NCBI GenBank assembly: GCA_048246715.1
Contig: DBFBCB010000037.1
Location: 17,703-81,702, forward strand
From: Collinsella aerofaciens
GTDB lineage: Bacteria > Actinomycetota > Coriobacteriia > Coriobacteriales > Coriobacteriaceae
Length of the DNA stretch: 64,000 nucleotides
Direction: 5' to 3'
Of this stretch, positions 2,752 through 60,765 are shown one piece after another (position 1 is the first letter of the stretch; each line of letters opens with the position of its first letter). The position numbers were made by a program, and so were the translations under genes. A model generated the notes under the pieces. That model worked only from the letters and a program-made list of their open reading frames with translations. It made no database searches and was not told the DNA's origin.

Positions 2752-3195
2752 ATGCGCTGTCCCAAATGCGGCAAGGCACATACCCGCGTCGTTGATTCCC
2801 GTATGCAGGAGTCAAATAACACCATTAAGCGTCGCCGCGAATGTTGCTCGTGTAACTATCGCTTTACAACGTTCGAACGATGCGAAGACCCAATCGAGGT
2901 CATTAAGTCGGACGGAACCAAGCAGCGGTTCGATCGCAATAAGCTGCTCGTCGGCTTGATGCGCGCCACTATCAAGCGCGATATCGACACTAAGAAGCTC
3001 AATGAGATTATCGATGACATCGAGGTCGAGCTGCGCTCTCGCACGCTGACGGCCGTTACGTCCCATGAGTTGGGTGACATGGTACTCAAGCGCTTGGCCA
3101 AGATCGACAAGGTGGCGTACATCCGCTTTGCCTCGGTCTACCGCGATTTCAAAGACGTCGATGAGTTTCTGCAAGAGCTCGACAAGCTAAGGTGA
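2752..3195 (+). CDS. nrdR: transcriptional repressor NrdR
   Basis: MRCPKCG...[13 protein letters not shown] zinc ribbon followed by an ATP-cone. Confidence 0.93.
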
Positions 3196-3199
3196 TTCC

Positions 3200-3643
3200 A
3201 TGTCCAACATTACCGTCAACATAAAGCGTCTCGACCCCACCGTCGAGCTTCCCAAATACGCCCATCCCACCGATGCCGGCTTGGATCTGCGCTCCAACGA
3301 GGACTGCGTCCTGAAGCCCTTCGAACGCCGTCTGGTCTCTACTGGGCTGGCCATCGCCCTGCCCGACGGTTACGCCGGCTTCGTCCAGCCCCGCAGCGGC
3401 TTGGCCATCAAGCAGGGCCTGTCTATAGTCAACACGCCGGGCCTCATCGACGCCCACTACCGAGGAGAACTCAAGGTTATCCTCATCAACCTGGATCCCT
3501 CCAACAACATCAAAATCAACAAAGGCGACCGCATAGCCCAACTCGTCATCCAAGAAGTCCCCACGGTCAACCTCATAGAGGTAAACGAGCTAGACAAAAC
3601 CGACCGAGGCAACGGAGGCTTCGGCTCCAGCGGCGTCGCCTAG
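3200..3643 (+). CDS. dut: dUTP diphosphatase
   Basis: Motifs [21 protein letters not shown] and the C-terminal [10 protein letters not shown]. Confidence 0.93.
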
Positions 3644-3659
3644 GGCGCTCGTATCCCTC

Positions 3660-3760
3660 CCGCCCGGGGCTTACCTATATCATTCCATGCTCAAACATTC
3701 TCGCGTCGCTTCGCTCGCTGCGAAACTGCGCGTGGAACGATATAGGTAAGCCCCGGGCGG
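3660..3760. repeat. palindromic element A (22-bp arms, 57-nt core)
   Basis: CGCCCGGGGCTTACCTATATC at 3660-3681 pairs with 3739-3760. The core is shared, inverted, with element B. Confidence 0.8.
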
Positions 3761-3799
3761 GCGGCTACTCGCTTGAAAATAATAATCATTCTTTCTGAT

Positions 3800-3841
3800 A
3801 AGCCGATGCGACAAAGGGTTGGATCCTTTGTCGCATCGGCT
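3800..3841. terminator. hairpin AGCCGATGCGACAAAGG / CCTTTGTCGCATCGGCT, candidate bidirectional terminator
   Basis: 17-bp perfect stem. T-rich tract on the plus side and A-rich tract before it. Confidence 0.5.
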
Positions 3842-3922
3842 TGCTGTATCTTTATTTTCCGGTTTCGCCTTTGCAGGTTCTAGTGGTGGGGAATCTGGTA
3901 TATCTGCTAGTACGTTAACGCA

Positions 3923-4026
3923 GCTTACCTGTGGGAGGCCCCTATATATCGTCCCACGCGCAGTTTCGCAGCGCAGCGAGAATGTTTGAGCATGGGATGA
4001 TATATAGGGGCCTCCCACAGGTAAGC
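3923..4026. repeat. palindromic element B (28-bp arms, 48-nt core)
   Basis: GCTTACCTGTGGGAGGCCCCTATATATC at 3923-3950 pairs with 3999-4026. The core is the reverse complement of the element A core. Confidence 0.8.
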
Positions 4027-17832: not shown

Positions 17833-18217
17833 ACCCGGTACCCTGAGGGCCGGACCGGCCGGCCCCGGGAGATCGGAGGACGGCCGGTCCGGAAAGAGGA
17901 AGAAGGGTTCCGCGGAGGCGGCCCCGAGGGCCTACGGCAGGCTCACCAGGCACGAGCGGGACACGGTCCAGAGGATGCTGGAGCGCAGGGCCTCGTGCAG
18001 GGAGATCGCCAGGGAGCTGGGCAGGTCGCCCTCGGCGGTGAGCGCCGAGGTGGCTTCGCACAGGTTCGTGACGGCGCCGAAGTCCAGGCGCGGCGAGCGC
18101 GTCGACGGCTCGGCCGACCTGTCGGCGGCCTGCCCGCGCCTGGCGGCGTGGCCGCGCTGCTGCAACGGGTGCGGCCGGTACCGTGCGATCGGCTGCAAGC
18201 GCCGCCCGCACGTATTC
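17833..18217 (+). pseudogene. IS30-family transposase, N-terminal fragment interrupted by an IS21 remnant
   Basis: HTH region LTRHERDTVQRMLERRASCREIARELGRSPSAVSAEV and a CPRL...CCNGCGRY...CKRRPHV cysteine motif. The reading frame resumes briefly after 19377. Confidence 0.7.
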
Positions 18218-19376
18218 TGTGTTTCGTCAAGAGGATTTGAGCAAAAAGAGCATCGGAAATTGAGCAGTCGCAGCATCGGAAGCGCGCACGCTTTTTGAGC
18301 GGCTAGCCCTCCTGCATGAGGGCATGGCGGACGCGGTAGGACTCGCCGCGGAACTGGACGAGCCTCCCGTGGTGGACGATGCGGTCGATCACGGCGGCGG
18401 CCATCTGGTCGTCCCCGAACACCGACCCCCACCTGCTGAACTCCAGGTTCGTGGTGATTACCACCGACTGCCTCTCGTATGCGTCGGCGAAGACCTGGAA
18501 GAGCAGCCTCGCCCCGTCCGCGTCGAGCGGGAGAAACCCGAGCTCGTCGATGACGAGCAGGCGGGCCTTGCCGATGAGCGCGGCCTCCCGGTCGAGCCTC
18601 CCGTCGTCGCGGGCGCGCCTCAGGCGCATCACGAGCGAGGACGCCGTGAAGAAGCGCGCCTCGAGCCTCCTCTCGCACGCCAGCGCGCAGAGGGCCGACG
18701 CCATGTGCGTCTTGCCGGTGCCGACGTCGCCCATGAGCACGAGGTCCTCCCTGCGCCCGACGAAGTCGAGCGCGAGCAGCGACTCGCGCCCCATGCCCTC
18801 CGGCCACGACACGGCCGACCAGTCGTAGCCGTCGAAGGTCTTGGGCGCCGGCAGCGCGCAGCGCCTGAGCAGCGTCGCGCGCTTCGAGGCCTCGCGGCTG
18901 GACCTCTCCGCCTCGAGGTAGCCCGCCAGGTACTCCACCTGCTTCGGGGTGCCGAGCCTCGACCACTCCTCCAGGACGGCGGTGGTGAGCGAGCACGACC
19001 GCCCGGCCTCCACGACCCTGCGGGCCAGCTCCTCGCTAGCTGCCATCGGCGACCGCCCCCTTCAGGAACCCGTCGTAGACCGACAGGTCGGCCCCGCCGG
19101 CCCCGCCGAGAGGGCGCGCGCAGAGAGGGGCGATGCCCCGCTGGCCTAGCCTAAGGGCGAAAACGGAATAGACGGACCGACCGTCCGGCTGAGTCTGGGA
19201 AGAGGTGCCGGGCGGCGGGCGGAGCATGGCCACCGGACCCATCGAAACACATCTCCACCGTTCCTTCAACTGGGAAAACGACGCCCCGTGGCCTGAATGG
19301 GGCCTCGGGGGCGTTCGGCTAACTGCGGGAACGGCCTATCCGCTCAATGTGTTCGGCTGAGATCGGAAATCAACCA
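18216..19376 (-). mobile_element. IS21-family element with internal istA deletion, nested in the IS30 remnant
   Basis: Both ends start with TG. A possible 4-bp TATT duplication flanks it. Only a fused N-/C-terminal stub of IstA remains (19036-19230), next to an intact istB. Confidence 0.7.
18303..19046 (-). CDS. istB: IS21-family helper ATPase IstB
   Basis: Walker A GDVGTGKTH, Walker B LLVIDELGF, and the TTNLEFSRWGSVFGD motif. Confidence 0.9.
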   Translation of the reverse strand: MAASEELARRVVEAGRSCSLTTAVLEEWSRLGTPKQVEYLAGYLEAERSSREASKRATLLRRCALPAPKTFDGYDWSAVSWPEGMGRESLLALDFVGRREDLVLMGDVGTGKTHMASALCALACERRLEARFFTASSLVMRLRRARDDGRLDREAALIGKARLLVIDELGFLPLDADGARLLFQVFADAYERQSVVITTNLEFSRWGSVFGDDQMAAAVIDRIVHHGRLVQFRGESYRVRHALMQEG

Positions 19377-19431
19377 TATTATGGGCACAGTCGGCATTTG
19401 GGTTGGATAGCCTCGCACCGGAGGAATCAAC

Positions 19432-19833
19432 ATGAGTACAAGTAGCTACAAACCGCAAAAAGGCCGTGGCCTCCCGTGGCCTTTAGACACGGACGCTCCA
19501 TCGGTTGCCGATCAGGCCGAGACGCCTAGCGAGATGGAGGCGGCGCTTGACGTTCGACAGGATGAGATTGCAAAGAGCGAGATCCTGAGTGGAATCAACA
19601 GGCCATCCTACGACTCATTATTTGCGGTCGCGAAGAATCGCGTCCAGCTTGCGATTCTGATCATGATTTGCTCCTTCCAGACGTCCAAAGGGCCTAATAG
19701 GAAGGATGCCAACGGAAAAGAACTTACAAAAGGTCTTTTCATGCGTCAGGACAAGCTCGAAAAAAAGTCTGTTCGACTCAACCGACTGTATCGAAAGCTC
19801 TGGGCGAGCTGGCTCATCGAGGCATCATCATGA
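19432..19833 (+). CDS. hypothetical protein
   Basis: RBS GGAGGA before the ATG. 133 aa with no recognisable domain. Confidence 0.4.
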   Translation: MSTSSYKPQKGRGLPWPLDTDAPSVADQAETPSEMEAALDVRQDEIAKSEILSGINRPSYDSLFAVAKNRVQLAILIMICSFQTSKGPNRKDANGKELTKGLFMRQDKLEKKSVRLNRLYRKLWASWLIEASS

Positions 19834-20862
19834 AGACCGATGGGGTGTGGGTCATCGTTTGGGCTCAGCTCGATATTCAAGCGCGTGAGGCCGGATGGGA
19901 TCCGCGCGCGGACGCGGACGGCGAGGTCGGACGTGAAAGCCGGACCGCAGAGGTATCGAGCGCACGCGGCCAGGGCCTCGAGGGCGCCTGGCGGGTAGGG
20001 AGATCCGAGCATGAGGCAGGACAACGCGCAGGCCCGCGAAAGGTTCACGAGCTCCCCCGCGACGCGGCTGGACCCTCGGCTGCCCCTCGTAAAGGATGCA
20101 GAAGACACGGTCGAGGTCCGACGGTTCGACCAGGCTGTACCGGCAGTCCGCGTACAGTGCGCAGCCCCTCCCGCGCGGGTCGCCGTCCGAGTCCTCATCC
20201 GGCTCATGATGGCGCACCTCAACCCAAAGGGCCTCCAACACGTCGTCGAACCCGAAATCGAGCTCCGCCTGGACGCTCTCGCCGAGCGCATCGCCCAGGG
20301 CGAGCTCCGGCACCTTCGTCACACGGCCGTCCAGCCACTCAATCTCTGTCATCGCGCGCATGGTGCAAGCCCCTTCCGACACGGGATTGTCAGCTCAACC
20401 CGACCCTTACCCATACGGACGAACATAACTCGCCAGGGGGAAGCCCCTGAAGGCCGTGCGCCACAACATGAGGCCGAATCCGCCCCCGGCTGGACAGGCC
20501 AACAACGAAGGAGCACACGGAACCGGCGCGGCGTTACAACCGTCCCGGCAAGCGTGTCACTTGGCCAAGTCATGATGCCGACAAACCCGGAAATGCTCCA
20601 ACGGAGCGCCGAACGAGCGTAACAATATAAAGCCGTGCAACACGTGTTGGACGACCGGAACATCCCAAACAAAGGCCTGTAGGTCCCACCTTCAAGCCCA
20701 ATAGCAAAATGTGCATCAGCGGATTTGCAGCGATACAAGTCTCAACCGTCACCATCACACCGCAGCGCGCCTAGTCCCACTCATCCTACTGCAAATGTCC
20801 CAGAACGAGAAAACGACCAGCTTAACATGCCAACCTTTATATCCGCACGCGCGTAATTCAAC

Positions 20863-21522
20863 TCATAAGGACCGGCTATCCCTTACCTGTGACACAATCT
20901 CAAACGCACAGAACAGAATCATCAGTCCAATCATCGTATAAGAGGCAGCCGAACCTTCAAGCACTATTCCACAAAGAACAATCTCCGCGCAGCCAATAAG
21001 AACTGTTATCAGGCGCTCTGCCTTTTTGCTCTCGCCGCTCGCATAAAAAGGCGGCAAAGTGCACAAGATCACATATAGCCCGGGAAGGGAATACAGGATC
21101 GATAGTCCAAGTCCCCCATCAACCGCAGTGCTTTGCGTAAGAATCAACTGAACCCAAACGGCAATTATCACTGAGCAGGTTGTCGATAAAAGAAGACTAG
21201 AAATATAGCACGCAACAAAGTCCCGTCGCATTCGAGCAGAGAAATCCGCGAACTCTCTTCGCCGCGTGGAAACAATAAGGTACACAGAAATTGCAATAGA
21301 ACCAATCAGAGAAAACAGCGGAACAACCAGCAATTCAAGCTTATTACCCCATCGATCAACCACACCCCCACTCCAATGAGCGGGAATTGTATCAGGGAGG
21401 ACTGACCAAGCCGCCCATAGAATCAGAAATGGAAGAATAGAGAGGATGAAAGATGATAACACTGCAGTAGTTTTTTTGAGGCTCTCATCGATTCCGCATC
21501 TCCTTGCGCGCCCACATTCCAC
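20863..21522 (-). CDS. DUF1648/SdpI-like polytopic membrane protein
   Basis: PDTIPAHWSGGVVDRWGNK motif after the first TM, then five to six TM segments. Confidence 0.6.
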   Translation of the reverse strand: MECGRARRCGIDESLKKTTAVLSSFILSILPFLILWAAWSVLPDTIPAHWSGGVVDRWGNKLELLVVPLFSLIGSIAISVYLIVSTRRREFADFSARMRRDFVACYISSLLLSTTCSVIIAVWVQLILTQSTAVDGGLGLSILYSLPGLYVILCTLPPFYASGESKKAERLITVLIGCAEIVLCGIVLEGSAASYTMIGLMILFCAFEIVSQVRDSRSL

Positions 21523-21676
21523 TCCGCCTTAAATCAAGTATACGTTTTGGAACGGGATGTCACTCCGAACGCCTTACCCTCTTAGTGTGAATGCCGCTGC
21601 GGCATTGTTGACTCATCCTTAGTAATCGCGTCTATCCTCTGCAGCATCAGCCAAAGCAATCCGAGAGGAGCCGCAC

Positions 21677-22638
21677 ATGCATGCAGCGGAAATTCCTTTC
21701 GGGGGGTATCTCCCAGATTTACCCGCCGCCCGAAGGGGCAGTCGACAGTCGAGTACGTACTGATCATCGCGATCATCGTCCTGGTGGCGCTGATCGCGGG
21801 ACCGTGGGTCTCGTCGGCGATCACAAACCAGTTCAACACGGTGGCGGGGACGCTCGGCAACGGAATCTCAAAGGGGAGCTGGGAGTCGGGCGGCACGGGC
21901 GGCGGCAACGGGTCGTTGACCGACGCCGACATCGTGGACCCCGTTCACGGGATAGCGTTCGCCGTGTACTCGGAGGACGACCACAGCCTCATGTTCTACA
22001 AGCGCCGCGGGGTCCCCAGAGTCGGTGACATGCTCAACAGCCGCCGCGTGACGGCGGTGTATACGGGGTTCGAAAATGGATACGCCACCGCGACCGTGGG
22101 AAACGACGGCAAGACGACTGCCCCCTGGTGGCCTAACAGAAATAATATCGTGGCCGTAAAGGCCATTGACGATGGCATAGAAATCCACTCGTTGGCATTT
22201 TGCTTTCAGTACATGGAGAACTGCAAGAGCTTTGATCTGGCAAAGTTCGACATGTCGAACTGCACAAATCTGCAGCACGCATTCGCGTATTGCGGCAATG
22301 CGACTTCCTTCAGTATTTCAAGCTGGGATACGTCCTCGGTCGTCGAATTCGACTCGGCGCTCAAAAACCTTTACAAGGTCGAGGAGATTGACATCTCCGG
22401 ATGGTCGACGCGGAAAGCCGGCGATTTACGTCTCCTTTTTTCCACCGACAGTTCGCTGAAAAGCGTGAAATTTGGACCAGGGTGGAAGACCTCAGATGTT
22501 ATGGATATGCTCGGCATGTTTAGCTATTGCAAAAATCTAAACCTCGACTGTTCCGATTGGAATGTCCCAACCTATGCCAATCATAGTGACTTCAATCACT
22601 GCGCCCCCGGCGTTATCCTTCCGAAGGCGTGGCAGTAG
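21677..22638 (+). CDS. Flp-type prepilin fused to a BspA/DUF285-like leucine-rich-repeat domain; both ATGs are out of frame with the body (G6 tract). Phase-OFF or pseudogene.
   Basis: RBS GAGAGGAG, then ATGCATGCAG. The body frame reads GQSTVEYVLIIAIIVLVALIAGPWVSSAITNQFNTVAG. C-terminal repeats of the W-D/N-T/V-S...M..MF type. Confidence 0.6.
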
Positions 22639-22783
22639 GTCTGAAGAAACAAAACGGCAAGCAGTTTATGTGGCGCGGGCACCCGTGCCGCCGTTGCCTC
22701 AGCGGCACGTTACGGGCTAGTCGGTTCGATTTAACGTACGCTCTGCATGCAATATCAATCCCCATGCGAAGGGAGTGTCGCAT

Positions 22784-23786
22784 ATGCATGCAGCGGCAAT
22801 TAACCTTCGGGGGGTGGTTATCTCCTAGGAATACCCGCCTCCGAGGCCAAGGAGCCATCGAGTACGTTCTGGTCATCGCGATTATCGTCCTGGTTGTGAT
22901 GATAGCCGGCCCTTGGGTCTCGTCGGCAATCAGGAACCAGTTCAACACGGTGGCGGGAGTATTGGTAAACGGGACAGCAGGTGGGACTTGGGAACCGAGC
23001 GGTTCCGGCAGCGGTAACGGCGCGGGTTCCGCGACCGTCCAGGCGGCGCTCGCCAAGGACGCGAAGGACACGCGAAGGACTGGACCCTCGGTGAGCAGAA
23101 GGCAGTTGCCGAGGGCATCGCCGCCAAGGGCGAGGCGTCGCCCGCCTACGCCAAGGCGAAGGCCGCGATGGATGCCGGCACCGAGTTCTCGATGAAGCTC
23201 ACCGATGGCAAGACGCTGACTTACCGCATTATCGGCATCAATCATGATGACCCTGCAGGCGGATCCGGCAAGGCGGGCCTCACGTTCCTCACCACCACGA
23301 CGGGCATTTGGTCCCCCATGAACGCGATTGACACCAACGCCGGCGGTTGGGAGAAGTCTGAACTCCGTCAGAAAATGAACTCCGGCAAGATCTGGAATCT
23401 GATGCCCTCCGATTTCCAGTCCAAGGTGAAGGCCGTCAAAAAGCTATCGAACAATGTCGGGGGCGGTGATGAGAACAAGAACGCCGCCGTGACGGCTACC
23501 TCGGACAAGCTGTTCCTGCTCAGCTACTCTGAGATCGCCCCCCACCTCCTATTGGGCATCCTATCCCTGGACTTCCTCCGAGGGCACCCAGTACGAGGCC
23601 TTCAAAGGCAAGGTGACGGAGAACTATAATCCCAACTCTGCCATTGCCATTGGCAGCGGTTGGTGGGAGCGTTCGGTGTTTCCGAACGCCTCGAAGGGCT
23701 TCCTCCATGTCGACAGCAGCGGCAATCCGTCGGACAGCAACTCCGCGCCGGGCTGGTTTTGCGTCTCCCCCGCCTGGTGCTTCTAG
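22784..23786 (+). pseudogene. Flp-type prepilin fused to a DUF6273-like domain, multiply frameshifted
   Basis: The G6 tract puts ATG1 out of frame. There is an 11-nt tandem duplication at 23059-23080 and a second frameshift at the C6 tract 23538-23543. The restored reading ends in ...GWFCVSPAWCF. Confidence 0.75.
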
Positions 23787-23798
23787 CTTGTCTAGCGC

Positions 23799-23832
23799 AA
23801 AGCCCGCGTTACCCCGCGCGTGCTTTCTTTTG
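23799..23832 (+). terminator. rho-independent terminator after Flp-fusion copy 2
   Basis: AAAGCCCGCG ... CGCGTGCTTTCTTTT. Confidence 0.6.
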
Positions 23833-24048
23833 GCGACCGAACGAACGGCTTCAGGTTCATGGCACGGGTAGTCGGATTGAAGAGAAATGGGGTCATACAG
23901 CGGCTCTCAGAGCGCCTGCCGCACTCCCCCGCCATTACCTCTGCTGCGTCCTCGTATAGAGTCCATCCTGCTTGGTGTTTCGAGTTCGGGGCGTATACGG
24001 TGGGTGGATAATGGATTCACTTCGATGACGGCGTTTACGGGAGCGACC

Positions 24049-24276
24049 ATGGCGATGCGCGAGATCGCGGTCAAGTTCGATGAGGGCGAAATGGCCTTGA
24101 TTCAGGGCCATGCGGACGCCACGGGCATGACCTTTTCCGAGTTCGTGAGAAGGGCCGCGTTCGAGAAGGCTGAGGACATGGCGGACATCGAGGCCTACAA
24201 CGAGGCTTTGGACGGGGACGGCGGCACTCGCTACCCGATGGAAGAGGTCGTGCGCATGGCGGTGGAGGCTGAGTGA
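24049..24276 (+). CDS. ribbon-helix-helix antitoxin (RelB/DUF6290-like), apparently an orphan
   Basis: MAMREIAVKFDEGEMALIQGHADATGMTFSEFVRRAAFEKAEDMADIEAYNEAL. RBS GGGAG. No toxin ORF follows. Confidence 0.6.
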   Translation: MAMREIAVKFDEGEMALIQGHADATGMTFSEFVRRAAFEKAEDMADIEAYNEALDGDGGTRYPMEEVVRMAVEAE

Positions 24277-24563
24277 TTGTCCACACGCGTTGTCTGTCTC
24301 GGCTCTAAAGGCTTCTCTTGGGCGGGGTTCTGCTTATAGCCGGGTCCCGCTTTTTTGCGGCTTTCAGTTGTCTTTCTGAAGGTATGAAATGGCTGCCTCG
24401 ATATGAATACGGTCGGCATTCGAAGCGGACGTTATAGCCGCGCTAATAGCGCATGACTTTCTCCCCTGCCGTCATCGTTGCCGCAGCGGCAAGACCGTTG
24501 CAAATACTTGGAATAGCCCTACGCTCGGCTCGTATTGCAAACCCCGAGTGAAGGGAGCCGTAT

Positions 24564-25514
24564 ATGCATGCAGCGGCAATTAACCTTCGGGGGGGGGTCG
24601 CTCCTGAAACGACCCGCTTCCGAGGGCAATCAATTATCGAGTACGTCCTGATCATTGCCGTCATCGGCCTGGTCATCGTGTTCGCGGGACCCGGCGTGGC
24701 CGGAGCCATCCGAAACCAGTTCAACCTGGTCGGCAACACGGTGAACAATGGGACGGTCGGCGGCGTCGAGGGAGGCGCGTCCGGTGGCGGCTCCGCAGGC
24801 GCCGATTCCGCGGCCGTCCAGGTGGCCATCGCCAAGGACGCGAAGGACTGGACCCTCGACGAGCAAGAGGCGGTTGCCAAAGACATTGCCAAGAACGGTA
24901 CATCGTCTATCGCCTACGCCAAGGCCAAGGCCGCCATGGATGCCGGCACCAAGTTCTCGATGAAGCTGACCAATGGCAAGACGCTCGAGTACCGTATCAT
25001 CGGCATCAACCACGACGACTTGGCCGATGGTAGCGGCATGGCAGGCTTGACGTTCGAGGCGACCAACTCTGCCTTGGGTAGCCAGAGAATGAACGCTACG
25101 GACACCAATGCCGGTGGTTGGGATAAGTCCGAGCTCCGTACCCGCCTCAACAGCGGTGACCTCTGGTTGCTCCTGCCCAGCGAGCTCCAGTCAAAGGTGA
25201 AACCCGTCACAAAGACAACCGATAACGTTGGCGGTAACTGGGGCGGTGCCCCCTCAGCGACGACCGACAAGGTTTTTCTGCTCTCGGCAACCGAAGTATA
25301 CGGGGATATGCAATCTGACGGCATCCAGTACGAGTGCTACAAATCCAAGGGCGTGACGGGGTCGAACTATTCCGGTGCATCAGGCTATAGCCACTGGACT
25401 CGTTCCGTGAGACCGCGCAGCTCCACATCCTTTCGCTATGTTCAAAGCGGCGGTATTTGCTACAGCTACAGCGCGACGGACTCGTTTTATGTCCTCCCCG
25501 CTTTCTGCTTCTGA
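24564..25514 (+). CDS. Flp-type prepilin fused to a DUF6273-like passenger domain (the only in-frame copy)
   Basis: MHAAAINLRGGVAPETTRFRG|QSIIEYVLIIAVIGLVIV matches the G-x4-EY Flp/TadV cleavage motif. Gly-rich linker, then NAGGWDKSELRTRLN ... DKVFLLS ... HWTRSV ... PAFCF. Confidence 0.8.
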   Translation: MHAAAINLRGGVAPETTRFRGQSIIEYVLIIAVIGLVIVFAGPGVAGAIRNQFNLVGNTVNNGTVGGVEGGASGGGSAGADSAAVQVAIAKDAKDWTLDEQEAVAKDIAKNGTSSIAYAKAKAAMDAGTKFSMKLTNGKTLEYRIIGINHDDLADGSGMAGLTFEATNSALGSQRMNATDTNAGGWDKSELRTRLNSGDLWLLLPSELQSKVKPVTKTTDNVGGNWGGAPSATTDKVFLLSATEVYGDMQSDGIQYECYKSKGVTGSNYSGASGYSHWTRSVRPRSSTSFRYVQSGGICYSYSATDSFYVLPAFCF

Positions 25515-25527
25515 TCTCTTTCATCGC

Positions 25528-25562
25528 AAAGCCCCCGCAATCCTGCGAGGGCTTTTCTTTTG
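25528..25562 (+). terminator. rho-independent terminator after Flp-fusion copy 3
   Basis: AAAGCCCCCGCAATCCTGCGAGGGCTTTTCTTTT. Confidence 0.75.
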
Positions 25563-25982
25563 GCGATTACTCAAACAATTCGAGGTTCATTGTACAGGTA
25601 ATCGGGTTGAGGAGAAATGGGGTCATACAGCGGCTCTCAGAGCGCCTGCCGCACTTCCCCGCCATTACCTTTGCGGCATCCTCGTATGGAGTCCATCCTG
25701 GTTGGCGTTTTGTTGTAACCGCTCACTTGTCCACAGATCAAGTGAACTGCTGGAATAAATACAGCGACACACTAGTTCGTTACAGTCGCCATATCTGCGT
25801 AAATCGCCGCGATAAATACAGCCTGTAATCGTCTGTATACCAGCTACGCGTATGTAGATTCATGTCGCGTTAATAAATCGGCTCAAGCGCGTGCAAAACG
25901 CGCAAGTAACCGCAAAAAGCGATTATCGCGCAGGTAGATTTTTGGCACCCTGTTGCTTAATCAAAATTAAGCAATTGCTTAA

Positions 25983-26100
<118 letters not shown>

Positions 26101-26180
26101 AAGCTTTTGTTTGTTGCTCTGCTCTCGCTCGCAACAGGGAATATATTAACCCGAAACTTTAGACTTGTGCAAGAACTTTT

Positions 26181-27392
26181 TTATAAATTTTGAAGCAAGT
26201 CCAAAATTGTATCTGCGAGCTTGTGTTTTGTTAGCACGGGAAGTTCTTGCGTACCCGCTGTACTCACGATCCAGGCCTTGTTGGTATCGGTTCCAAAGCC
26301 CGAATCGGCGCGCGAGACATCGTTGGCGATAATGGCATCGCAGCCCTTGCGGGCCAATTTGCGCTCGGCGTACTCGACAACGTTATCGGTCTCGGCCGCA
26401 AATCCGATTACGCACCGCTCGCCCTTCTGGCGCGAGAGCTCGGCCAAAATATCGACCGTCTCGACAAGCTCGATGCAATCCAAGCGTTCGTTGGACTTTT
26501 TGAGTTTATGGTCCGCCGGGTCCGCAGGCGTGTAGTCGGCGACGGCAGCGGCGCAAATGGCCGCGTCGGCCGTCTGGAAGGCGCTCAGTGCCGCCTGGAG
26601 CATCTCTGCGGCGGTCTGCACGCGCACGCAATCCACGCCGCGGGGCACATCGACCGATGTCGGTCCCAACACGAGCGTGACCGCAGCACCACGGCGAGCA
26701 GCCTCCCCCGCCAGGGCGATGCCCATCTTGCCCGAAGAGCGGTTGCCAATGAAGCGCACCGGGTCGATAGGTTCGTGCGTGGGGCCGGCGGTAATCACGA
26801 TGCGCTTACCTGCCAGGTCCTGAGGCGCGGGGTTGAGCACCTCACAGACAGCCTCGACGATGTCCTCGGGCTCGCTCATGCGTCCCGTGTCCACGTCGCC
26901 GCAGGCAAGGTAGCCGCTGCCGGGCCCCACCACATGGACACCGCGCTCGCGCAGCGTGGCCATGTTGGCCTGCGTCGCCGTCGCCTTCCACATGCCGTTG
27001 TTCATAGCGGGTGCGATCACGATGGGTCGCGGCGTCGCAAGCAGCGTGGTGGAGATGAGGTCATCGGCGACGCCGTTGGCCATCTTGGCAATGATATTGG
27101 CCGTCGCGGGCGCCACGACCACCAGGTCGGGCTCCTGCGCCAGCGAAATGTGGTGGATGGGGTCGGAGGGATTGTCGAATAGGCCCACGGCAACGGGCTC
27201 GTTGGTGAGCGCACGGAAGGTGAGCGGGCCCACAAACTCGGTGGCATGCTCGCTCATAACGACCTTGACGCGCGCGCCACGCTTTTGCAGCAGGCGCACG
27301 ATATTGCACGACTTATAGGCGGCGATCCCGCCGGTAATGCCCAGCAGGATCGTTTTTCCCTCAAGTTGCATTGAATTGTTGGATGCCGCCAT
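26181..27392 (-). CDS. coaBC: bifunctional phosphopantothenoylcysteine decarboxylase / phosphopantothenate-cysteine ligase
   Basis: GKTILLGITGGIAAYK flavoprotein N-domain plus the C-terminal CoaB domain. 403 aa. Confidence 0.92.
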   Translation of the reverse strand: MAASNNSMQLEGKTILLGITGGIAAYKSCNIVRLLQKRGARVKVVMSEHATEFVGPLTFRALTNEPVAVGLFDNPSDPIHHISLAQEPDLVVVAPATANIIAKMANGVADDLISTTLLATPRPIVIAPAMNNGMWKATATQANMATLRERGVHVVGPGSGYLACGDVDTGRMSEPEDIVEAVCEVLNPAPQDLAGKRIVITAGPTHEPIDPVRFIGNRSSGKMGIALAGEAARRGAAVTLVLGPTSVDVPRGVDCVRVQTAAEMLQAALSAFQTADAAICAAAVADYTPADPADHKLKKSNERLDCIELVETVDILAELSRQKGERCVIGFAAETDNVVEYAERKLARKGCDAIIANDVSRADSGFGTDTNKAWIVSTAGTQELPVLTKHKLADTILDLLQNL

Positions 27393-43794: not shown

Positions 43795-44021
43795 CGATCT
43801 TGTCGACAAGGAGGATCATGGTGCCGCCTTTGACCTTGTGTGCCTATATGAAAAAAGGCCCCAACTTGCGTTGGAGCCTCATTCAATGCTCGGGTGGAGA
43901 CGAGGGGGATCGAACCCCTGACCTCTTGACTGCCAGTCAAGCGCTCTCCCAGCTGAGCTACGCCCCCGTGCGAGAAAGTACTATACGGGAACTCCCCCGC
44001 CGATGCAAGGACAATTTTGGA
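43795..44021. repeat. 227-bp duplicated block, copy 2 (includes a 24-nt stub of the ABC-F start)
   Basis: GATCTTGTCGACAAGGAGGATCATGGTGCC ... GGACAATTTTGGA. Confidence 0.85.
43895..43967 (-). tRNA. tRNA-Ala (GGC), second identical copy
   Basis: Same sequence as 43346-43418. Confidence 0.9.
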
Positions 44022-44120
44022 TAATTTCGCAGTCGCGGCGCGGGCCGCCATCCGCCCAACGGCCGTCCTGCCGGCGCCAGGCCCGTTATCGGGGCCGATC
44101 GCGCTCCCGCCGACCCGGCG

Positions 44121-44283
44121 ATTTCAAAACCATGCCGGTTTACGGGGCCGGGCCGGGAACCCCCCGAGCATGCCGTCATCGGTAAAATCAAAACCGCAGG
44201 TAGACGGCTTGCGCATTCCGTGAAATGCAGGGCATGGACGGCCGGTCCGGGTCCAGCACCGTAATCCGGCATAGTTTTGAAAT
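44121..44283. repeat. long imperfect palindrome (25-nt outer arms, 23/25 match)
   Basis: ATTTCAAAACCATGCCGGTTTACGG versus the reverse complement of CCGTAATCCGGCATAGTTTTGAAAT. Confidence 0.65.
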
Positions 44284-44335
44284 GAAATTAATTCACTAAC
44301 AGGCAAACTAGGTAGTTCTAGCGCCTTGTCGCCGA

Positions 44336-45493
44336 CTAATTTCCGATTTCCAACCAGTTGCACAAAACATTTGCTCGCAGTCGCGTCTCGGCTGACTTCA
44401 TTGCTTCAGTTTTGGCTTTATAGCGAATCCCTAAACGGTCGCAGACGCTCCTGACTATGGTGTCTAGCTGCTTTGAATCGTTGAGCATATCGTGAGTCAC
44501 CAGGAATACATCGAATCCCATGCTCTGCAACGCAGTCATGCGCTCGGCATCGTGGTCAAGTACCGCGCCAGATCCATGGATGACTTCACCTTGGATCTCG
44601 ATAATTACCGCCTTCATCAGGATTGGATTTACGATCACGATATCGCCGTAGCAAACCTTTTGCCCTGCGATGCTTTGGGCCGCCATGGATAGAGGGGTTA
44701 AATCGTTGAGGTACACGTATCTGAATCCTGCACCACCTAGACGTCGAGAACGACTTAGAAGCAGGACCCCAGCGACCTCGAGTGGAGACGCAGCAATGCC
44801 GATAACCTGCTGAGCGGCATCATAAAACTGCTTTCCCCACATTTGACTTTTGACCTTGTCGGCGAAACGATGCAGGTCGCTCAGTTCGATGAGCGGCTTT
44901 CTCATCCAAAGAGAAGTACCTTTGAGTTTCGTGAGCTCTCTTCCATCTTCACGCTTGCTCTTTTGGCCATCATTATCTGGGTCCTTTACGGTTGCACGGG
45001 CATAAACTCGTTTCCAAGGAACCTCGTCTTCGCCTTGTCCAAGTTCGAACAAATCCTGCGTGCTGGAATTGCGATTCTCCTCTACCGCCATTTTTAGCTG
45101 CATTTCGACAGCGGGGGTCGGCTCGAATACAGAAAACCAGCCGCAAAGTTCGTACATAGCCAGTACAAGATCTATTTGGGACACAAAGCGCGTCATAGTA
45201 AATAACGTGTTAAGCGGATTGGTGACACAAAAGCCTAAATGAGTGTCGATTGTTGTGCTGACATCCGATGCCCCTTCCCAGCGAATAGTGGAGCGCAATC
45301 CCGAGTGGTGATTACAACAACCTGGCGAAGCAACAGCGATAATCGGGGTCTTGAGGACGTCGGTTACGAAAGGGGCTTGGGATAGAGCTCGCCAGCCTTC
45401 TTCGGAGTTGGGTAGGCGCGGGTAGAGGTCATGCACCTGCGGTGGGCAGCGCCAGTAGCGGAATGCGGTGTTTGCGCAGACGATTTCGTCCAT
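44336..45493 (-). CDS. hypothetical protein with a C-terminal DUF559/Vsr-like endonuclease-type domain
   Basis: C-terminal IEIQGEVIHGSGAVLDHDAERMTALQSMGFDVFLVTHDML pattern. Start at MDEIV with RBS AGGGGAGG. Confidence 0.55.
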   Translation of the reverse strand: MDEIVCANTAFRYWRCPPQVHDLYPRLPNSEEGWRALSQAPFVTDVLKTPIIAVASPGCCNHHSGLRSTIRWEGASDVSTTIDTHLGFCVTNPLNTLFTMTRFVSQIDLVLAMYELCGWFSVFEPTPAVEMQLKMAVEENRNSSTQDLFELGQGEDEVPWKRVYARATVKDPDNDGQKSKREDGRELTKLKGTSLWMRKPLIELSDLHRFADKVKSQMWGKQFYDAAQQVIGIAASPLEVAGVLLLSRSRRLGGAGFRYVYLNDLTPLSMAAQSIAGQKVCYGDIVIVNPILMKAVIIEIQGEVIHGSGAVLDHDAERMTALQSMGFDVFLVTHDMLNDSKQLDTIVRSVCDRLGIRYKAKTEAMKSAETRLRANVLCNWLEIGN

Positions 45494-45873
45494 GTGGCCT
45501 CCCCTGGTTTCGACCGTAGGCCGTGTGGATTGCGGGCATGGCCGATTATCTACCGGGGCATCATGCGGGTAAGTACCGGAAGCAAACCAAAAGCTTGACG
45601 AGTTCCGCCGGAAAACCGTCGTGAGATAGATATCCGCTGGAAGACGCTCTGGGCATATGGTCCCTGTCTCCACATTTGCACTTGGATCCCATGGGGAATT
45701 CAATGAAAATTCGCATGCGTTTTATACAAAACATGCAATGGCGTCAGCAAAAAGGGTGCGATAAAAATGACGCCTTAGACGACAACGATTTGTTCTTGGT
45801 GCCAGTTTTGGTGTCACCCTTGGTGAAAAAAGAAAAAGGCCAGAGGCTTAACACCTCTGACCTGTGCTTTAGA

Positions 45874-45948
45874 TGGTGGGCGATACAAGATTCGAACTTG
45901 TGACCCCATCCGTGTGAAGGATATGCTCTACCCCTGAGCCAATCGCCC
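45874..45948 (-). tRNA. tRNA-Val (CAC anticodon)
   Basis: GGGCGAT acceptor, anticodon loop UUCACAC, T-loop AAGTTCGAATCTT, encoded CCA, and a terminator hairpin at 45838-45868. Confidence 0.9.
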
Positions 45949-46086
45949 GTCGCCTTTCGGCAAAAGAGATACTATCATAGCCGCGCGTGGTTTACCAAGA
46001 ACTTTTTGCCCCCGATTTTAAATTCGTGGGCGCAGACCGCGCCACCGTAATCAGGGCAGCCGACAAACCCCCAGCTCAACAGCCCT

Positions 46087-46875
46087 TCATCGCTTAATCC
46101 ACGAGGTCTCGGGGCGGCAGATAAGTCGCGCGTTGTTGTAGGCCATGTCGAGCGTGAGGCAGGTGCGCGCGGCGTAAAAGCCGTCCTCGCGCTGGATGGT
46201 CAGCGCCAGCTCGGGCTTGTCGCCGGTCAGGCACAGTGGCAACAGCAGTTGGATCCGGCCGCCGTAGAACTGCGGCACCGCGAGCGTGTAGTTGGCGGCG
46301 GCGCGGCGGGCGGCCTCGACGACGGCGCCCTCAAAGGCGCGGCGCAGCAGCAGCGAGTTGTCCTCCCCCATCAGGCTGGCGGGAATACGCGTAAGGTTCT
46401 CCTCGTCGCCCAAAATGTGGTCGATGTTGGAGCGGATGGGCAGGCGGTAGTCAAAGACCAGCTCGGAGGGGTCCTCGGCAAAGCGCACGCGGCACGGCAG
46501 GTACTCAAATGAGACCAGCATGGGGTCGCTCTCCTTAAAGAAGCCCTTCAAAAACCAGCGCTGGCGCGCGTCGGGCTTGGTGTTGGGCTCAAACAGGCCG
46601 TAGATGGTCTCGTAGCGGCGCGTGTACAGGCCGGTGTTGAACAGGCAGCGGTCGCCGTCGAACACCAACGGCAGGTTGGACGGCGCGGTCTGGTTCACGT
46701 CGCGTTCGGTCAGAAACACCGCGCGGCTAAACGAGAACGACAGGTAATTCTTAAGGATACGGTTGTTGGGACCCCAGTCCTCGGGATCGGCGAGGTCTAC
46801 CAGGCGGTCGTAACAGGGCTCGGGGCAAAACGCAAAGTCGTAGACATTGCTGCACAGGGTGTTGGGGATCTCCAT
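46087..46875 (-). CDS. DUF3825 domain protein
   Basis: LKNYLSFSFSRA, FNTGLYTRRYETIY, QLLLPLCL and LTLDMAYNNARLI blocks recalled for DUF3825. Confidence 0.55.
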   Translation of the reverse strand: MEIPNTLCSNVYDFAFCPEPCYDRLVDLADPEDWGPNNRILKNYLSFSFSRAVFLTERDVNQTAPSNLPLVFDGDRCLFNTGLYTRRYETIYGLFEPNTKPDARQRWFLKGFFKESDPMLVSFEYLPCRVRFAEDPSELVFDYRLPIRSNIDHILGDEENLTRIPASLMGEDNSLLLRRAFEGAVVEAARRAAANYTLAVPQFYGGRIQLLLPLCLTGDKPELALTIQREDGFYAARTCLTLDMAYNNARLICRPETSWIKR

Positions 46876-47091
46876 GTGGCGTCCAATCCAATTGATAGCT
46901 GGCGGGCGGATGCTTTGATTCTATACGGGCGACACGTCGCCGGTACGCGCAACGCAATTGCATCGAGGTTTTTTGGCGAGTTAGGCCATCGCCGGCGTGA
47001 TAAGGTTGGCCCCTCGGTACGGGCGTCGATCGTGCAGCCGTCGACCACCAGCGCTTGGGATACCAAAGGAGCCGCGTCAGCCAAGGCTGCA

Positions 47092-47475
47092 TCAGCTCTG
47101 GCGCTGTCTGAAGATACGCAACGCTTTCTCTAGCTCAGGAATATCATCGACGATAACTTTCCATGCAAGGGATCGATCGACTTCTCGATATCCATGTGCT
47201 ACGTATCCATGTGCTACGAAATTTCGAAAACCCCCAATATCGTTCCAAGGATACTCCGGAAAAGCCGATTGGATCTCATCGGAAAGATGGAGTGCATCCT
47301 CGGCGATTCTGTAGACGGGGCTCATGATCGCGTCGTAAGCAAGCTCACCTTCCTCGCTCCGATCGCTAACGAAAGAGTTTTCCGTGGCATCAAAATAATC
47401 GATTCGTCTAGCCAGAGTTTCGCAATCGGAAAGAATGACCCCGATGAGCTCCTCGTCCCGTTTACGCCGCTTCAT
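47092..47475 (-). CDS. hepT: HepT-like (DUF86) RNase toxin
   Basis: R-x4-H-x-Y motif FRNFVAHGY. Overlaps the MntA stop by 14 nt. Carries an in-frame 15-bp tandem duplication. Confidence 0.8.
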   Translation of the reverse strand: MKRRKRDEELIGVILSDCETLARRIDYFDATENSFVSDRSEEGELAYDAIMSPVYRIAEDALHLSDEIQSAFPEYPWNDIGGFRNFVAHGYVAHGYREVDRSLAWKVIVDDIPELEKALRIFRQRQS

Positions 47476-47761
47476 AGAGACGCACCTCATCCTTTTCAAT
47501 GCTCTTGCGAAATGCAGGGCGCATATGCTCGGGAGGGTTGGTGACAATCTCAACATCTCGCCCGAGCTCTTCTTCGAGCTCAAGGGAGAGTTCGTATAGC
47601 GTGCCGAACGTCATTGTTTCACCGCAGACAAGACGCAAATCAATATCGCTATCTGGCGTTTGCTCGCCACGGGCGAAGGGGCCAAATAGGTATGCCTCGC
47701 GGACGTCGTAACGAGACAGCACACGAGAAACAGCAGCGGATATGTCGACAAGCGTAATCAT
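47462..47761 (-). CDS. mntA: MntA-like nucleotidyltransferase antitoxin
   Basis: LFGPFARGEQTPDSDIDL matches G-x-x-x-R-G-x(n)-D-x-D. Confidence 0.82.
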   Translation of the reverse strand: MITLVDISAAVSRVLSRYDVREAYLFGPFARGEQTPDSDIDLRLVCGETMTFGTLYELSLELEEELGRDVEIVTNPPEHMRPAFRKSIEKDEVRLYEAA

Positions 47762-48185
47762 GTCTCAATTTTACTTACCGATTGAAAGGATGGCAATCGC
47801 CATGCGCCCGTTCCACAGGCCGGTGATTAGAGAGGGGCTGTATCCGGTAGTATGCGGCAAAATCTGAAGATGCCATACGCGAGGGAGATTGGCAAAGTCT
47901 CTAACCGTGGTATTGTTGACAAAAATCGGGTTGTGCTCAGGGATTGCTAATTTTTCCTCGCGCTTCCGAAATATAGGCATTTTGGCAGCGATCTGAGGTG
48001 CCTTTGAGCGCCATGCCGATGTCGCCGAGCCAAGAGCAATTGGTTAACGGACAAGCTGGGGCACGCGTTCTAGTATTTCAATAGCCAATGCCGAGGGGAC
48101 ACGTTAAGATGAAGCCAGTAAACCCGCCCGGCCCCTGCTTAGCATGCACACTGGCGGGTCTTTTTTTCAAATTCTAGGAGCCGAG

Positions 48186-48646
48186 ATGAAGTACGAGAAG
48201 CCATTCCTCACCTACGACGAGCAGGCGGACCTGCTGATCTCGCGCGGCCTCATGGCAGACCGAGAAGAGCTCGTCGGCAAGCTCGAGCGCGTGGGATAAT
48301 AGCAGGCACGCTCGGAGTTAGCGCCAAGGTGGCCGAATCCTGGCTCGTGGCGCTCAACACTGTGAGGAACTGCTGTGCCCACCATAGCCGCCTCTGGAAC
48401 AAGACGCTCGGCACCAAACCCATGATCCCAAGGGATGACACCGCCTGGCACGAGCCCCACGAGGTCGGCAACCACAAGATGTTCGGCACGCTCACTGTAC
48501 TCAGCTACATGCTCGAAACCATCGCGCCGGCCACCTCATGGAGGTCGCGCCTCCTCGATCTCATGGAAGAGAGGCTGCCTCGCGAGGAATGGCGAGCCAT
48601 GGGCTTCGGAGACGGGTTGATTTCCGATCTCAGCCGAACACATTGA
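48186..48646 (+). pseudogene. Abi_2 (AbiD/AbiF-like) abortive-infection gene, internally deleted and 3'-truncated
   Basis: MKYEKPFLTYDEQADLLISRGL N-terminus. Two stop codons at 48296-48301. The frame shifts to ...VAESWLVALNTVRNCCAHHSRLWN. The ORF is cut at GFGDG by an IS21-type end. Confidence 0.75.
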
Positions 48647-48679
48647 TCGGATAGGCCGTTTCCGTAGCCAGCCGAACCC
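48615..48679 (+). repeat. IS21-family terminal sequence fragment (target of the IS110 insertion)
   Basis: GGTTGATTTCCGATCTCAGCCGAACACATTGATCGGATAGGCCGTT... matches the reverse complement of 19305-19376. A diverged continuation lies at 50107-50217. Confidence 0.7.
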
Positions 48680-48950
48680 ATTACAGTCTGAAATAGGCCA
48701 TCGATAAATTTCGATGGCGAGCATTCGGCGCATTGCCTACGATACGGGCAAGCCCCGAGGGGCCGCCGATCGGGCGCCTCCGGATGGCCGTCTGCCCCTG
48801 CCCCGTAGAGGGCCCGGGGGGTGTTGCCACCGGGGGCGCTCGCCGCTCCGGACGACTGATAGGAAACTGCCGGGCGCAAGCGCCACGGCCAGGTAATGTG
48901 GGTGTCGCGGGGAGGGGTTCCGATCGGCCTACCGATTGGAGGATACCACC
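48680..48950 (+). ncRNA. predicted IS110-type bridge (guide) RNA region in the left end
   Basis: Inferred from the family architecture (long structured 5' non-coding end). GC-rich self-complementary segments. Not folded or searched. Confidence 0.35.
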
Positions 48951-50108: not shown

Positions 50109-50217
50109 CCGAAACGCACCGAGCAGACTGAAGCCCACCGGCCTAATGGCTTGGCGTCAGCATGCCGCGATTCGGTCGCACGGAGAGCATTTCCCAGTTG
50201 ACAAAACTATAGGAACA

Positions 50218-50330
50218 CATTACAGTCAGAAATGAGCTATTCGATATCTCGTTGATGCATTTCCCCGGTGTCGGATACGATGCAAGCAAGCCCGTCTGGG
50301 CCGCCGATCGGGCGTCCCCCCACATTGTAA
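50218..50330 (+). repeat. solo partial left end of a second, related IS110-family element
   Basis: CATTACAGTCAGAAATGAG...GATACGATGCAAGCAAGCCC...GCCGCCGATCGGGCG parallels 48680-48785, but the internal segment differs. Confidence 0.65.
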
Positions 50331-50477
50331 AATGCGTTCGCTAGAATCGGCTCATTTACCCGTAGAGAGGGCTAGCGCCCATGGTCGACCACGCCGACGT
50401 AGCTTGCAATCTCCCCAAGCGCGCACATGAGCTCATCGAAGAAGCCGACCACATCGAATCCAGCTGTAATGCCAGCC

Positions 50478-51833: not shown

Positions 51834-52033
51834 CTCATCTACCGTAGCAATCGACTTCCCTCACCAAATGGCCCGACCTGTCTTCTATCCGAATCGCCAT
51901 GGCCGCAGCCTGCGTCAGCGGCGACCCGCGACTCGTTTCCCGATTATACCAGCTGCAACCGAGAAGAGCTTTCCCAGGCTCCTGCGCAGGGCAAAAACGA
52001 GCACGAAGAAGAGGGCGACTTGGATACCAAGAA

Positions 52034-52140
52034 CGGTCGCGCCTCCTCGATCTTATGGAAGAGAGGCTGCCTCGCGAGGAATGGCGAGCCATGGGCTTCG
52101 GAGACGGCCGGGAGAGGCACCCGCTCTGGTCTAAGTGGTT
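52034..52140 (+). pseudogene. second fragment of the Abi_2 C-terminus (72 nt duplicated from 48541-48612)
   Basis: RSRLLDLMEERLPREEWRAMGFGDGRERHPLWSKW. Confidence 0.7.
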
Positions 52141-52486
52141 AGTCAACGAAAAGGTCGATGAAAGCTTCAACGAAGAGAGCCGGCAAAACGAAGGTCGGCA
52201 GGACCAGACAAAGGGGCCCGGCCAACAGCGTTGCCACGCCCCATGTCAGCTCTTGTTGCAGCCGCTCGCGCGTCATGCCAGGATCTCGTTCGCGCGCTTC
52301 TACACCGTTGAGCCTCACCATGCAGCCGAGACGGACAGAAGACCGTGAGCACGGCGAAGAAGACGCGACTGGCTCATCCTTCAATCAATCCAATATATGA
52401 AATCAGATGCAGCCCACTCCAAAGACAACTTCGAAGTTCTTGATTTAGCTACAGCTTTACTGTCACTTACAGCGCCTAAATCAGCA

Positions 52487-60740: not shown

Positions 60741-60765
60741 GTCCAAAGAAACGTCCGCATCTTCA

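Follow-up and report, generated by a model that had tools for sequence, protein, structure and literature searches.

The Neisseria pilC gene, which has a poly-G tract in the region that codes for its signal peptide, is an example of classical translational phase variation. In the lic genes of Haemophilus influenzae, alternative ATGs lie in different frames and more than one repeat phase is productive; the repeat is a tetranucleotide. Here we describe a family of pilin-like genes in Collinsella aerofaciens that contain a G tract close behind two overlapping start codons. Three members of the family (copies 1, 2 and 3) form an array in the stretch of DNA that we analysed, hereafter called the window, which comprises 64,000 nt of C. 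aerofaciens (assembly GCA_048246715.1, contig DBFBCB010000037.1, positions 17,703-81,702 of the forward strand). As in pilC and lic, the repeat is found just past the start, where a pilus-associated or surface gene encodes its leader, and changes in frame would turn the gene ON or OFF. However, pilC and lic belong to Gram-negative pathogens and are without a class III leader. Our results make it highly probable that the Collinsella genes are subject to classical slipped-strand translational phase variation with a dual start. The best-supported explanation is that the G runs are hypermutable simple-sequence tracts of the contingency-locus kind, located in the leader-coding part of genes for putative Flp-type modular pilin-like proteins.

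The closest parallel is found in Bifidobacterium breve UCC2003, where replication slippage in G tracts switches sortase-dependent pilus genes (Penno et al., 2022; PMC9187656). Like C. aerofaciens, B. breve is a gut-commensal actinobacterium with an intragenic poly-G tract between the secretion-signal part and the body of the pilus protein. Its reference genome is out of frame, in-frame lengths allow expression, and equivalent tracts occur across the genus (PMC9187656). However, the B. breve pilins have a Sec signal and an LPXTG motif and are assembled by sortase, whereas in Collinsella an Flp-type (class III) leader precedes a DUF285 or DUF6273 body. Additionally, Collinsella has two overlapping starts, which lead to two productive phases. 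Last, tract populations were measured directly in B. breve, whereas the evidence for Collinsella is comparative only.

Homopolymer-tract phase variation has also been reported for glpK and other genes of Mycobacterium tuberculosis (PMC10334774), and the drug tolerance associated with glpK has been termed rapidly reversible (10.1101/717272). The likeness is that short coding G/C homopolymers of an actinobacterium give rise to frameshifts and were detected by comparison of many genomes. The difference is that the genes are metabolic or regulatory, with no paralogous surface family, that the tracts are usually 7-9 nt long, and that there is no dual start. With regard to the proteins themselves, modular type IV pilins are known, for example PilB of Streptococcus sanguinis (PMC8179133). 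The Collinsella proteins resemble Flp/Tad (type IVc) and modular pilins in having a leader that ends in G, the motif xxxxEY, a hydrophobic helix, and a module grafted on a pilin-like N-terminus. They differ from Flp pilins in that the mature proteins have about 295 aa rather than about 50-80 aa and are thus not small mature Flp pilins, in that the Flp_Fap profile scores below its curated cut-off, and in that no tad genes lie nearby.

Five runs of at least six G's are present on this strand of the window, and three of these occupy the same codon position in the three paralogues. An earlier note on this DNA had placed them at 21701-21706 (G6, copy 1), 22809-22814 (G6, copy 2) and 24589-24597 (G9, copy 3), and we find them there, in codons 8-11 of the paralogues. 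The copy 2 run is the first part of a degenerate tract, G6-T-GG (22809..22817, plus strand), and the copy 3 run lies in codons 9-12 (CGG GGG GGG GTC, which reads R-G-G-V). A single G9 per 64 kb is unremarkable, as a G9 or C9 was present in 31 of 100 shuffles. The tract is significant for where it lies and for how it behaves across genomes, not for being a G9.

Each tract is preceded by the conserved start region ATGCATGCAGCGG, at 21677, 22784 and 24564, in which the second ATG (ATG2) begins 4 nt after the first (ATG1) and is in the +1 phase. The dual start ATGcATG spans 21677..21683 in copy 1, with the Shine-Dalgarno-like sequence GAGAGGAG at 21663-21670, and 24564..24570 in copy 3, with AAGGGAG at 24551-24557, spaced 6 nt from ATG1 and 10 nt from ATG2 (all plus strand). 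Overall, the spacing from such a sequence is 6-8 nt to ATG1 and 10-12 nt to ATG2. Our recount of the distance from ATG1 to the conserved GAGTAC, which encodes the EY motif, agrees with the reported 74, 76 and 75 nt for copies 1, 2 and 3. Copy 3 is in frame from ATG1, giving a 316-aa open reading frame (ORF) at 24564-25514. For copy 2, ATG2 (22788) alone is in frame; the ATG1 frame meets a TAG at 22826. Copy 1 is out of frame from both ATGs, and the earliest start in its mature frame is a GTG at 21784, past the EY motif. Thus, the tract must be translated. A start codon 3′ of the tract, which would make the tract part of the 5′ untranslated region, was ruled out, as there is no ATG, GTG or TTG in the mature frame before the EY motif. 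The claim that only one of the three copies is in frame was correct in that copy 3 is ON and copy 1 is OFF, but the leader of copy 2 is in phase with ATG2 and is not ‘off’.

We propose that strand slippage during replication adds or removes a G and so shifts the frame between the starts and the protein body. One Shine-Dalgarno site would serve ATGcATG, and two of the three tract phases would lead to a full-length precursor. The precursors, MHAAAINLRGG... from ATG1 and MQRQLTFGGG... from ATG2, would give the same mature protein after cleavage between G and Q, whereas the third phase would give a short out-of-frame peptide (OFF). The two ON phases are predicted to alter just the first ~8 residues of a leader that is itself predicted to be cleaved, leaving the mature protein identical. 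Copy 1 of the window is OFF by its reading frame, and one, two or four added G's would turn it ON.

Both readings are found in databases, where proteins of this family begin either MHAAA(I/F)(N/S)(L/P)RGG V... or MQRQ(L/F)(T/R)(F/L)GGG V.... The MQRQ form corresponds to the ATG2 reading plus one G; an example is COLAER_02101 of ATCC 25986, which starts MQRQLTFGGG. A pattern scan of one genome per species gave 120 loci with 168 genuine leaders (the genome set; two pattern hits, L072 and L079, were unrelated chance matches and were excluded), and a separate scan of metagenomic contigs gave 159 leaders (the metagenome set), about 330 together. The genome set contained 62 leaders in the ATG1 phase, 69 in the ATG2 phase and 37 (22%) that were OFF; the corresponding numbers for the metagenome set were 72, 53 and 34 (21%). 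The expected proportion of OFF leaders is about 0% for ordinary genes and 33% under unconstrained drift. By this distribution of phases, ATG2 is a regularly used second start and two of the three frames are ON. The dual start itself, as ATGYATG or GTGCATG, was kept in 157 of the 159 metagenomic leaders, and both exceptions were OFF. Codon 2 is CAT, TAT or GAT, each of which preserves the overlapping ATG.

The earlier note had suggested slipped-strand ON/OFF switching of a surface-protein family. Comparison of isolates and metagenomes fits this suggestion, as genomes that agree in both flanks of the tract differ in its length; high-frequency reversibility within a clone is the part that we infer. 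Over the ~330 homologous leaders the tract ranges from G6 to G13, orthologues of all three copies reach G9-G13, and each group with identical flanks contains four to six length alleles. The 31 copy-1-type loci with identical flanks comprise 23 with G9, three with G10, three with G6, and one each with G7 and G8. Among the 19 copy-3-type loci with identical flanks, 12 have G9, three have G10, and G6, G8, G11 and G12 occur once each. For the copy-2 type (24 loci) the tracts are G6TGGG (19), G9TGGG (3), G7 (1) and G10 (1). As had been predicted, a G7 tract rescues copy 1: orthologues with G7, and also those with G10, read from ATG1, whereas G8 reads from ATG2.

The tract stands out against its surroundings. 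Over 1.1 kb, orthologues differ from the window by 2-13 substitutions, and the tract is almost the sole indel and the only recurrent one. Loci with 99-99.7% identity over stretches of 1.1-11 kb show essentially no other difference than the tract. One of these, L123, shares 99.7% identity with the window over 10.9 kb, yet its copy 1 tract is G9 rather than G6; another, L125, is equally similar (99.7%) and has G6 in common with the window. Ten contigs that encode the exact copy 3 protein of the window have G6, G8, G9 or G10 in copy 1, and in these contigs independent gene callers report 319-321 aa from the in-frame copy 1 alleles and 284 aa, from a GTG start, from the out-of-frame alleles. Ten more contigs, picked through a neighbouring RelB-like gene and thus unbiased with respect to the tract, have G9 (6), G10 (3) or G6 (1) in copy 1 and G9 (7) or G10 (3) in copy 3. 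Cultured isolates show a similar spread of lengths. The 883 kb of related Collinsella loci contain 157 G/C runs of at least 7 nt. Of these, 138 belong to leader tracts that the pattern detected; about 12 of the remaining 19 fall within leaders of additional paralogues, which brings the leader position to ~150 of 157.

Could these lengths be errors of sequencing or assembly in a homopolymer, with all copies truly in frame? Runs of G9-G10 are hard for several sequencing platforms, and some of the contigs are long-read assemblies that contain other split genes (e.g. L137 and L138). However, the alleles recur in independent assemblies; G6 in copy 1 is found in the window, L039, L110, L125 and L140, and G9 in dozens. 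Contig names point mostly to SPAdes or MEGAHIT short-read assemblies and to cultured isolates at 20-70x coverage. Additionally, the lengths show a strong phase bias that runs opposite ways in the two gene types, unlike random error, and the same 1.1 kb has hardly any other indels. We consider such an artefact very improbable as a general explanation.

The state of the genes depends on the type of body that they encode. Genes of the DUF6273 type are ON in 88 of 95 cases (93%) and OFF in seven, whereas genes of the DUF285 type are OFF in 26 of 32. For each gene type the OFF share departs from one third (binomial p of ~1e-8 to 1e-9, uncorrected for relatedness). As the DUF6273 type is ON in 93% of cases despite a varying tract, selection seems to act on length variants that arise frequently. 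At the modal length, G9, the DUF6273 paralogues are ON and the DUF285 paralogue is OFF, but a change of +1 or -1 in the latter would turn it ON.

A different view is that the genes decay and that the tracts, though somewhat prone to indels, change on evolutionary time scales only, without phase variation. An OFF copy 1 would then be a fixed null on its way to becoming a pseudogene like copy 2. This would agree with the predominance of OFF in copy 1 (~80% of assemblies, most of which have the same G9), with the short G6 tracts of the window, and with the wide sharing of the copy 2 pseudogene. Some orthologues also have an extra 1-nt indel at a T6 run of copy 1 (22436-22441), a minor second indel hotspot: in several copy 1 orthologues that are otherwise near-identical, the run is T5 or T7 and the DUF285 domain is truncated. 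However, loci with 99-99.7% identity alternate between ON and OFF lengths, and the 295-aa ORF is intact in 21 of 27 OFF copy 1 alleles. Copy 1 of the window and a diverged OFF relative (L085) have kept full ORFs with a dN/dS of 0.41/1.29 = 0.32, that is, at a divergence of dS 1.3. Decay also does not account for a copy 1 lineage with a 2-nt shorter flank, in which G9 and G10 are re-phased to ON, or for the high ON share of the DUF6273 type at variable tract lengths. OFF alleles with a G-run of six or less are absent from the metagenome set, where the shortest runs are interrupted tracts, and number two in the genome set, both of them copy 1 with G6. By their intact and constrained ORFs, the OFF DUF285 alleles are not decaying, and we regard slow decay as an unlikely explanation. 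The combination found here, a 5′ coding tract, length polymorphism between constant flanks, and an effect on frame with intact, constrained ORFs behind OFF tracts, is that of a homopolymer contingency locus.

Copy 2 (22784..23786, plus strand) has followed a different course. It encodes an Flp-like leader and DUF6273, but is a pseudogene split over three frames. Its tract looks like an interrupted G10; most orthologues have G6TGGG and the window has G6TGGTT, with the leader in the ATG2 phase. Two tandem copies of the 11-nt unit ACGCGAAGGAC (23059..23080, plus strand), which is present once in intact relatives, shift the frame. A second frameshift is caused by an extra C in a C6 run (23538..23543, plus strand), after which the frame is restored (11 + 1 = 12 nt). 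The duplication and the extra C, which the earlier note had overlooked, leave three ORF fragments. The 11-nt unit is present in two copies in 51 loci and in one copy in 62, and the C-run is C6 in 43 loci, C5 in seven, and C7 and C9 in one each; an intact relative (L036) encodes 303 aa. As these lesions are common to dozens of Collinsella genomes, copy 2 is truly an inherited pseudogene rather than an artefact of assembly. The suggestion that a G8 tract would restore copy 2 was wrong, as the gene is killed by the duplication and the extra C and its leader is already in the ATG2 phase.

The tract also forms part of a conserved hairpin on the sense strand, located at 24584..24626 in copy 3 (plus strand), 22810-22842 in copy 2 and ~21695-21737 in copy 1. 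The G tract is the 5′ arm, and the C/U-rich T-R-F-R-G codons are the 3′ arm in copy 3 (24612-24626). When RNAalifold was applied to 61 distinct leaders with the tract set to G9, it gave a 14-pair hairpin, one side of which is the G run with its 5′ neighbours and the other the C/U-rich T-R-L-R-G codons immediately preceding the cleavage site. Paired cells amounted to 97.9%, compared with 93.0 +/- 0.5% in column shuffles (0 of 500 reached the observed value) and 42-64% when the partner was slid, although the sequences are related, the structure was taken from their own consensus, and coding constraints apply. In 14 sequences, compensatory changes (AU to CG; UG/UA to GC) are seen at two inner pairs, and variation facing the G run is exclusively C-to-U or U-to-C. 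The peptide encoded by the loop and the inner stem is not conserved (VAPETT, VSPRNT, VARRAA, IAHRAV). When folded as single-stranded DNA, the sense strand gave -13.7 kcal/mol (z = -3.06) for copy 3 and -15.1 kcal/mol (z = -3.29) for the G9 copy-1 type, compared with z = -1.29 for the antisense strand and z = -1.1 for copy 1 of the window with its G6. The hairpin could favour slippage, modulate initiation or stimulate recoding. We know of no description of a hairpin that embeds the tract in Neisseria pilC or Haemophilus lic.

The last of these roles leads to another possible explanation: instead of, or besides, switching at the DNA level, the G run and hairpin may cause transcriptional slippage or ribosomal frameshifting, and OFF alleles such as the common G9 copy 1 would be expressed at a set low level. 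The tract is indeed an arm of the conserved sense-strand hairpin, with its high pairing, its two compensated pairs and a z of about -3 against -1.3; pairing is conserved while the peptide of the loop region is not; and the DUF285 paralogue stays intact though usually out of frame. Nevertheless, it is the length of the tract in the DNA that varies and that tracks the frame. Productive transcriptional slippage is best documented for A/T runs, and the G run sits inside the hairpin, whereas frameshift stimulators usually follow the run by 5-9 nt. Recoding and DNA switching are mutually compatible; we consider recoding distinctly unlikely.

We therefore return to slipped-strand phase variation, against which several observations have to be weighed. 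The evidence is comparative, coming from genomes and metagenome contigs, so that the rate and the reversibility of switching are inferred; the slippage itself, at a rate sufficient for reversible switching within a population, is the mechanism that would account for the alleles. Among the few contigs that came from the same sample, none differed in length at one locus. The assemblies are mostly metagenomic consensus sequences, and a minority of the length calls may be errors. G9 is modal for all paralogues regardless of phase, which may partly reflect shared ancestry rather than a balance of mutation and selection. Copies 1 and 2 of the window carry just G6, which is expected to be far less mutable than G9-G10. 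Most copy 1 orthologues are OFF and a few have the extra frameshift at the T6 run (22436), and loss of copy 1 may be under way in some lineages. Finally, Tad and prepilin-peptidase genes were not found in the window.

The proteins are of interest in their own right. All three copies have a leader of the Flp type (class III) with a terminal G, after which come QxxxEY and a hydrophobic helix. The predicted prepilin-peptidase site of copy 3 (24564..25514, plus strand; 316 aa; phase ON from ATG1) is G/QSIIEY, of the Flp type G/XXXXEY (24624..24644, plus strand), and the junction of leader and mature protein is MHAAAINLRGGVAPETTRFRG/QSIIEYVLIIAVIGLVIVFAGP (RG/QSIIEYVLIIAVIGLVIVFAGP). The predicted cleavage motifs are G/QSTVEY in copy 1 and G/QGAIEY in copy 2. 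Across 50 homologues, G21, E26 and Y27 are invariant or nearly so. Three homologues (P0106, P0003 and P0112) have R or E at the predicted -1 cleavage position, which otherwise is a nearly invariant G (..LRRQSIIEY, ..LREQSIIEY); their sites are not expected to be substrates of a typical prepilin peptidase.

Profile searches place the leader close to, but below, the established families. Pfam Flp_Fap (PF04964) scored 19.5 bits against a curated cut-off of 32.2, with sub-threshold matches at E <= 0.01 in 48 of 50 homologues (best 5.7e-6), and the Class_IIIsignal profile scored 20.6-22.9 bits against a cut-off of 23.7. The bodies are clearly assigned: DUF6273 (PF19789) in copy 3 with 58.4 bits (cut-off 23.5), the DUF285/PARCEL repeat (PF03382) in copy 1 (21677..22638, plus strand; phase OFF, with its 295-aa mature-frame ORF intact) with 64.9 bits (cut-off 25), and DUF6273 in a copy 2 fragment with 28.1 bits (cut-off 23.5). 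By this architecture the proteins would be ‘modular pilins’, with a predicted cleavage and a possible assembly into filaments; surface display would presumably depend on a Tad-like machinery. T2SSE, TadB/C and A24 peptidase domains were absent from the 30 window ORFs scanned and from recurrent neighbours of the other loci, and literature searches on Collinsella together with Tad, Flp or pilin returned nothing relevant. A sequence search of the Protein Data Bank, made with both copy 1 and copy 3, gave no match. The AlphaFold2 model obtained for copy 3 was unusable (mean pLDDT 40.6, pTM 0.38; alignment of 50 sequences, all at least 76% identical).

More than 2300 homologues were found; those with names belong to C. 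aerofaciens, and the related genome loci are all from Collinsella. The copy 3 protein belongs to a 99%-identity cluster (P0001) with 1112 members. Poly-G phase variation is an ordinary mechanism that has not previously been described for Collinsella or for this gene family; in the full-text literature searched, we found no description of phase variation in Collinsella. Features that may mark the Collinsella genes as a variant are the hairpin and a dual start that affects the leader only.

If our explanation is correct, it has several implications. Collinsella is among the most prevalent human gut actinobacteria, and strains with identical marker genes would differ in the putative adhesin or pilin modules that they display. 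Gene callers would routinely mis-annotate such genes as truncated or hypothetical. Metagenomic read pile-ups at the tracts could provide a direct in vivo read-out of selection by host immunity or phages on surface structures. The locus would be a second independent actinobacterial example beside Bifidobacterium, with a cleaner design. As both ON phases change only the discarded leader, it is well suited to the study of slippage rates.

We also put forward, tentatively and with considerable doubt, a broader hypothesis. The tract may be the adjustable arm of a conserved mRNA or sense-DNA hairpin ~18 nt after the dual start, so that its length sets both the phase and the geometry of the hairpin. 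It would then act as a graded three-state switch, with the hairpin promoting slippage or recoding and with paralogues offset in phase, and would belong to a genome-wide poly-G contingency system in Coriobacteriia that controls which combination of adhesin modules a type IV-like filament displays.

In another Collinsella locus, an intragenic G11 (L097:3399-3409) splits a D12-class N6-adenine DNA methyltransferase (PF02086) into two out-of-phase ORFs, 3074-3499 (profile positions 2-64) and 3373-3954 (profile positions 85-244). This Dam-like methyltransferase looks like a candidate for phase variation (a ‘phasevarion’) and would be in keeping with the broader hypothesis. As the G11 splits a gene of this kind, poly-G contingency tracts in Collinsella may extend beyond the pilin-like family.

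The array is flanked on one side by a DUF1648 membrane-protein gene with an IS21-type element (17932-19046, with IstB at 18303-19046) and on the other by tRNA-Pro (26024-26100, minus strand), which adjoins coaBC. It forms a segment of lower GC content (0.51-0.58, with one bin of 0.66 that contains an insertion sequence), and GC content is 0.61-0.66 beyond ~26000. As gene number and insertion sequences at the tRNA-Pro/coaBC junction differ between genomes, this junction is a variable hotspot. Between copies 2 and 3 lies an orphan gene for a RelB/DUF6290-type antitoxin (24049-24276) with no evident toxin partner; the exact protein is indexed in 4577 blocks of a public assembly collection, which indicates that the locus is widespread. 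A 157-nt non-coding repeat, 85% identical between its two copies, follows copy 2 (23824-23980) and copy 3 (25554-25710), and short GC-rich palindromes (e.g. GTGCCGC...GCGGCAC) lie ~70-95 nt upstream of each start (21591-21607, 22694-22718 and 24477-24492). An Rfam scan of 19000-27000 returned tRNA-Pro only and assigned no family to the 157-nt repeat or the palindromes; a scan for promoters and terminators gave no signal above shuffles.

DUF6273 has been reported as a target of diversity-generating retroelements (DGR) in phage receptor-binding proteins. We rejected the C-terminus of DUF6273 as such a target here, as blastn of the three 3′ ends against the whole window returned the paralogues only and no template repeat; a reverse transcriptase gene at 52487-53932 has no DGR-related repeat. 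This gene lies in a part of the window (44000-64000) that is of lower GC content and looks like a defence island. Besides the reverse transcriptase, the putative island contains genes for a DUF3825 protein (46087-46875), a RES-domain protein (50478-51833) and a KAP-family NTPase (60766-63150), as well as a Gabija-like pair, in which an OLD/AAA_15-TOPRIM ATPase (58637-60310) adjoins a UvrD-like helicase (57568-58647).

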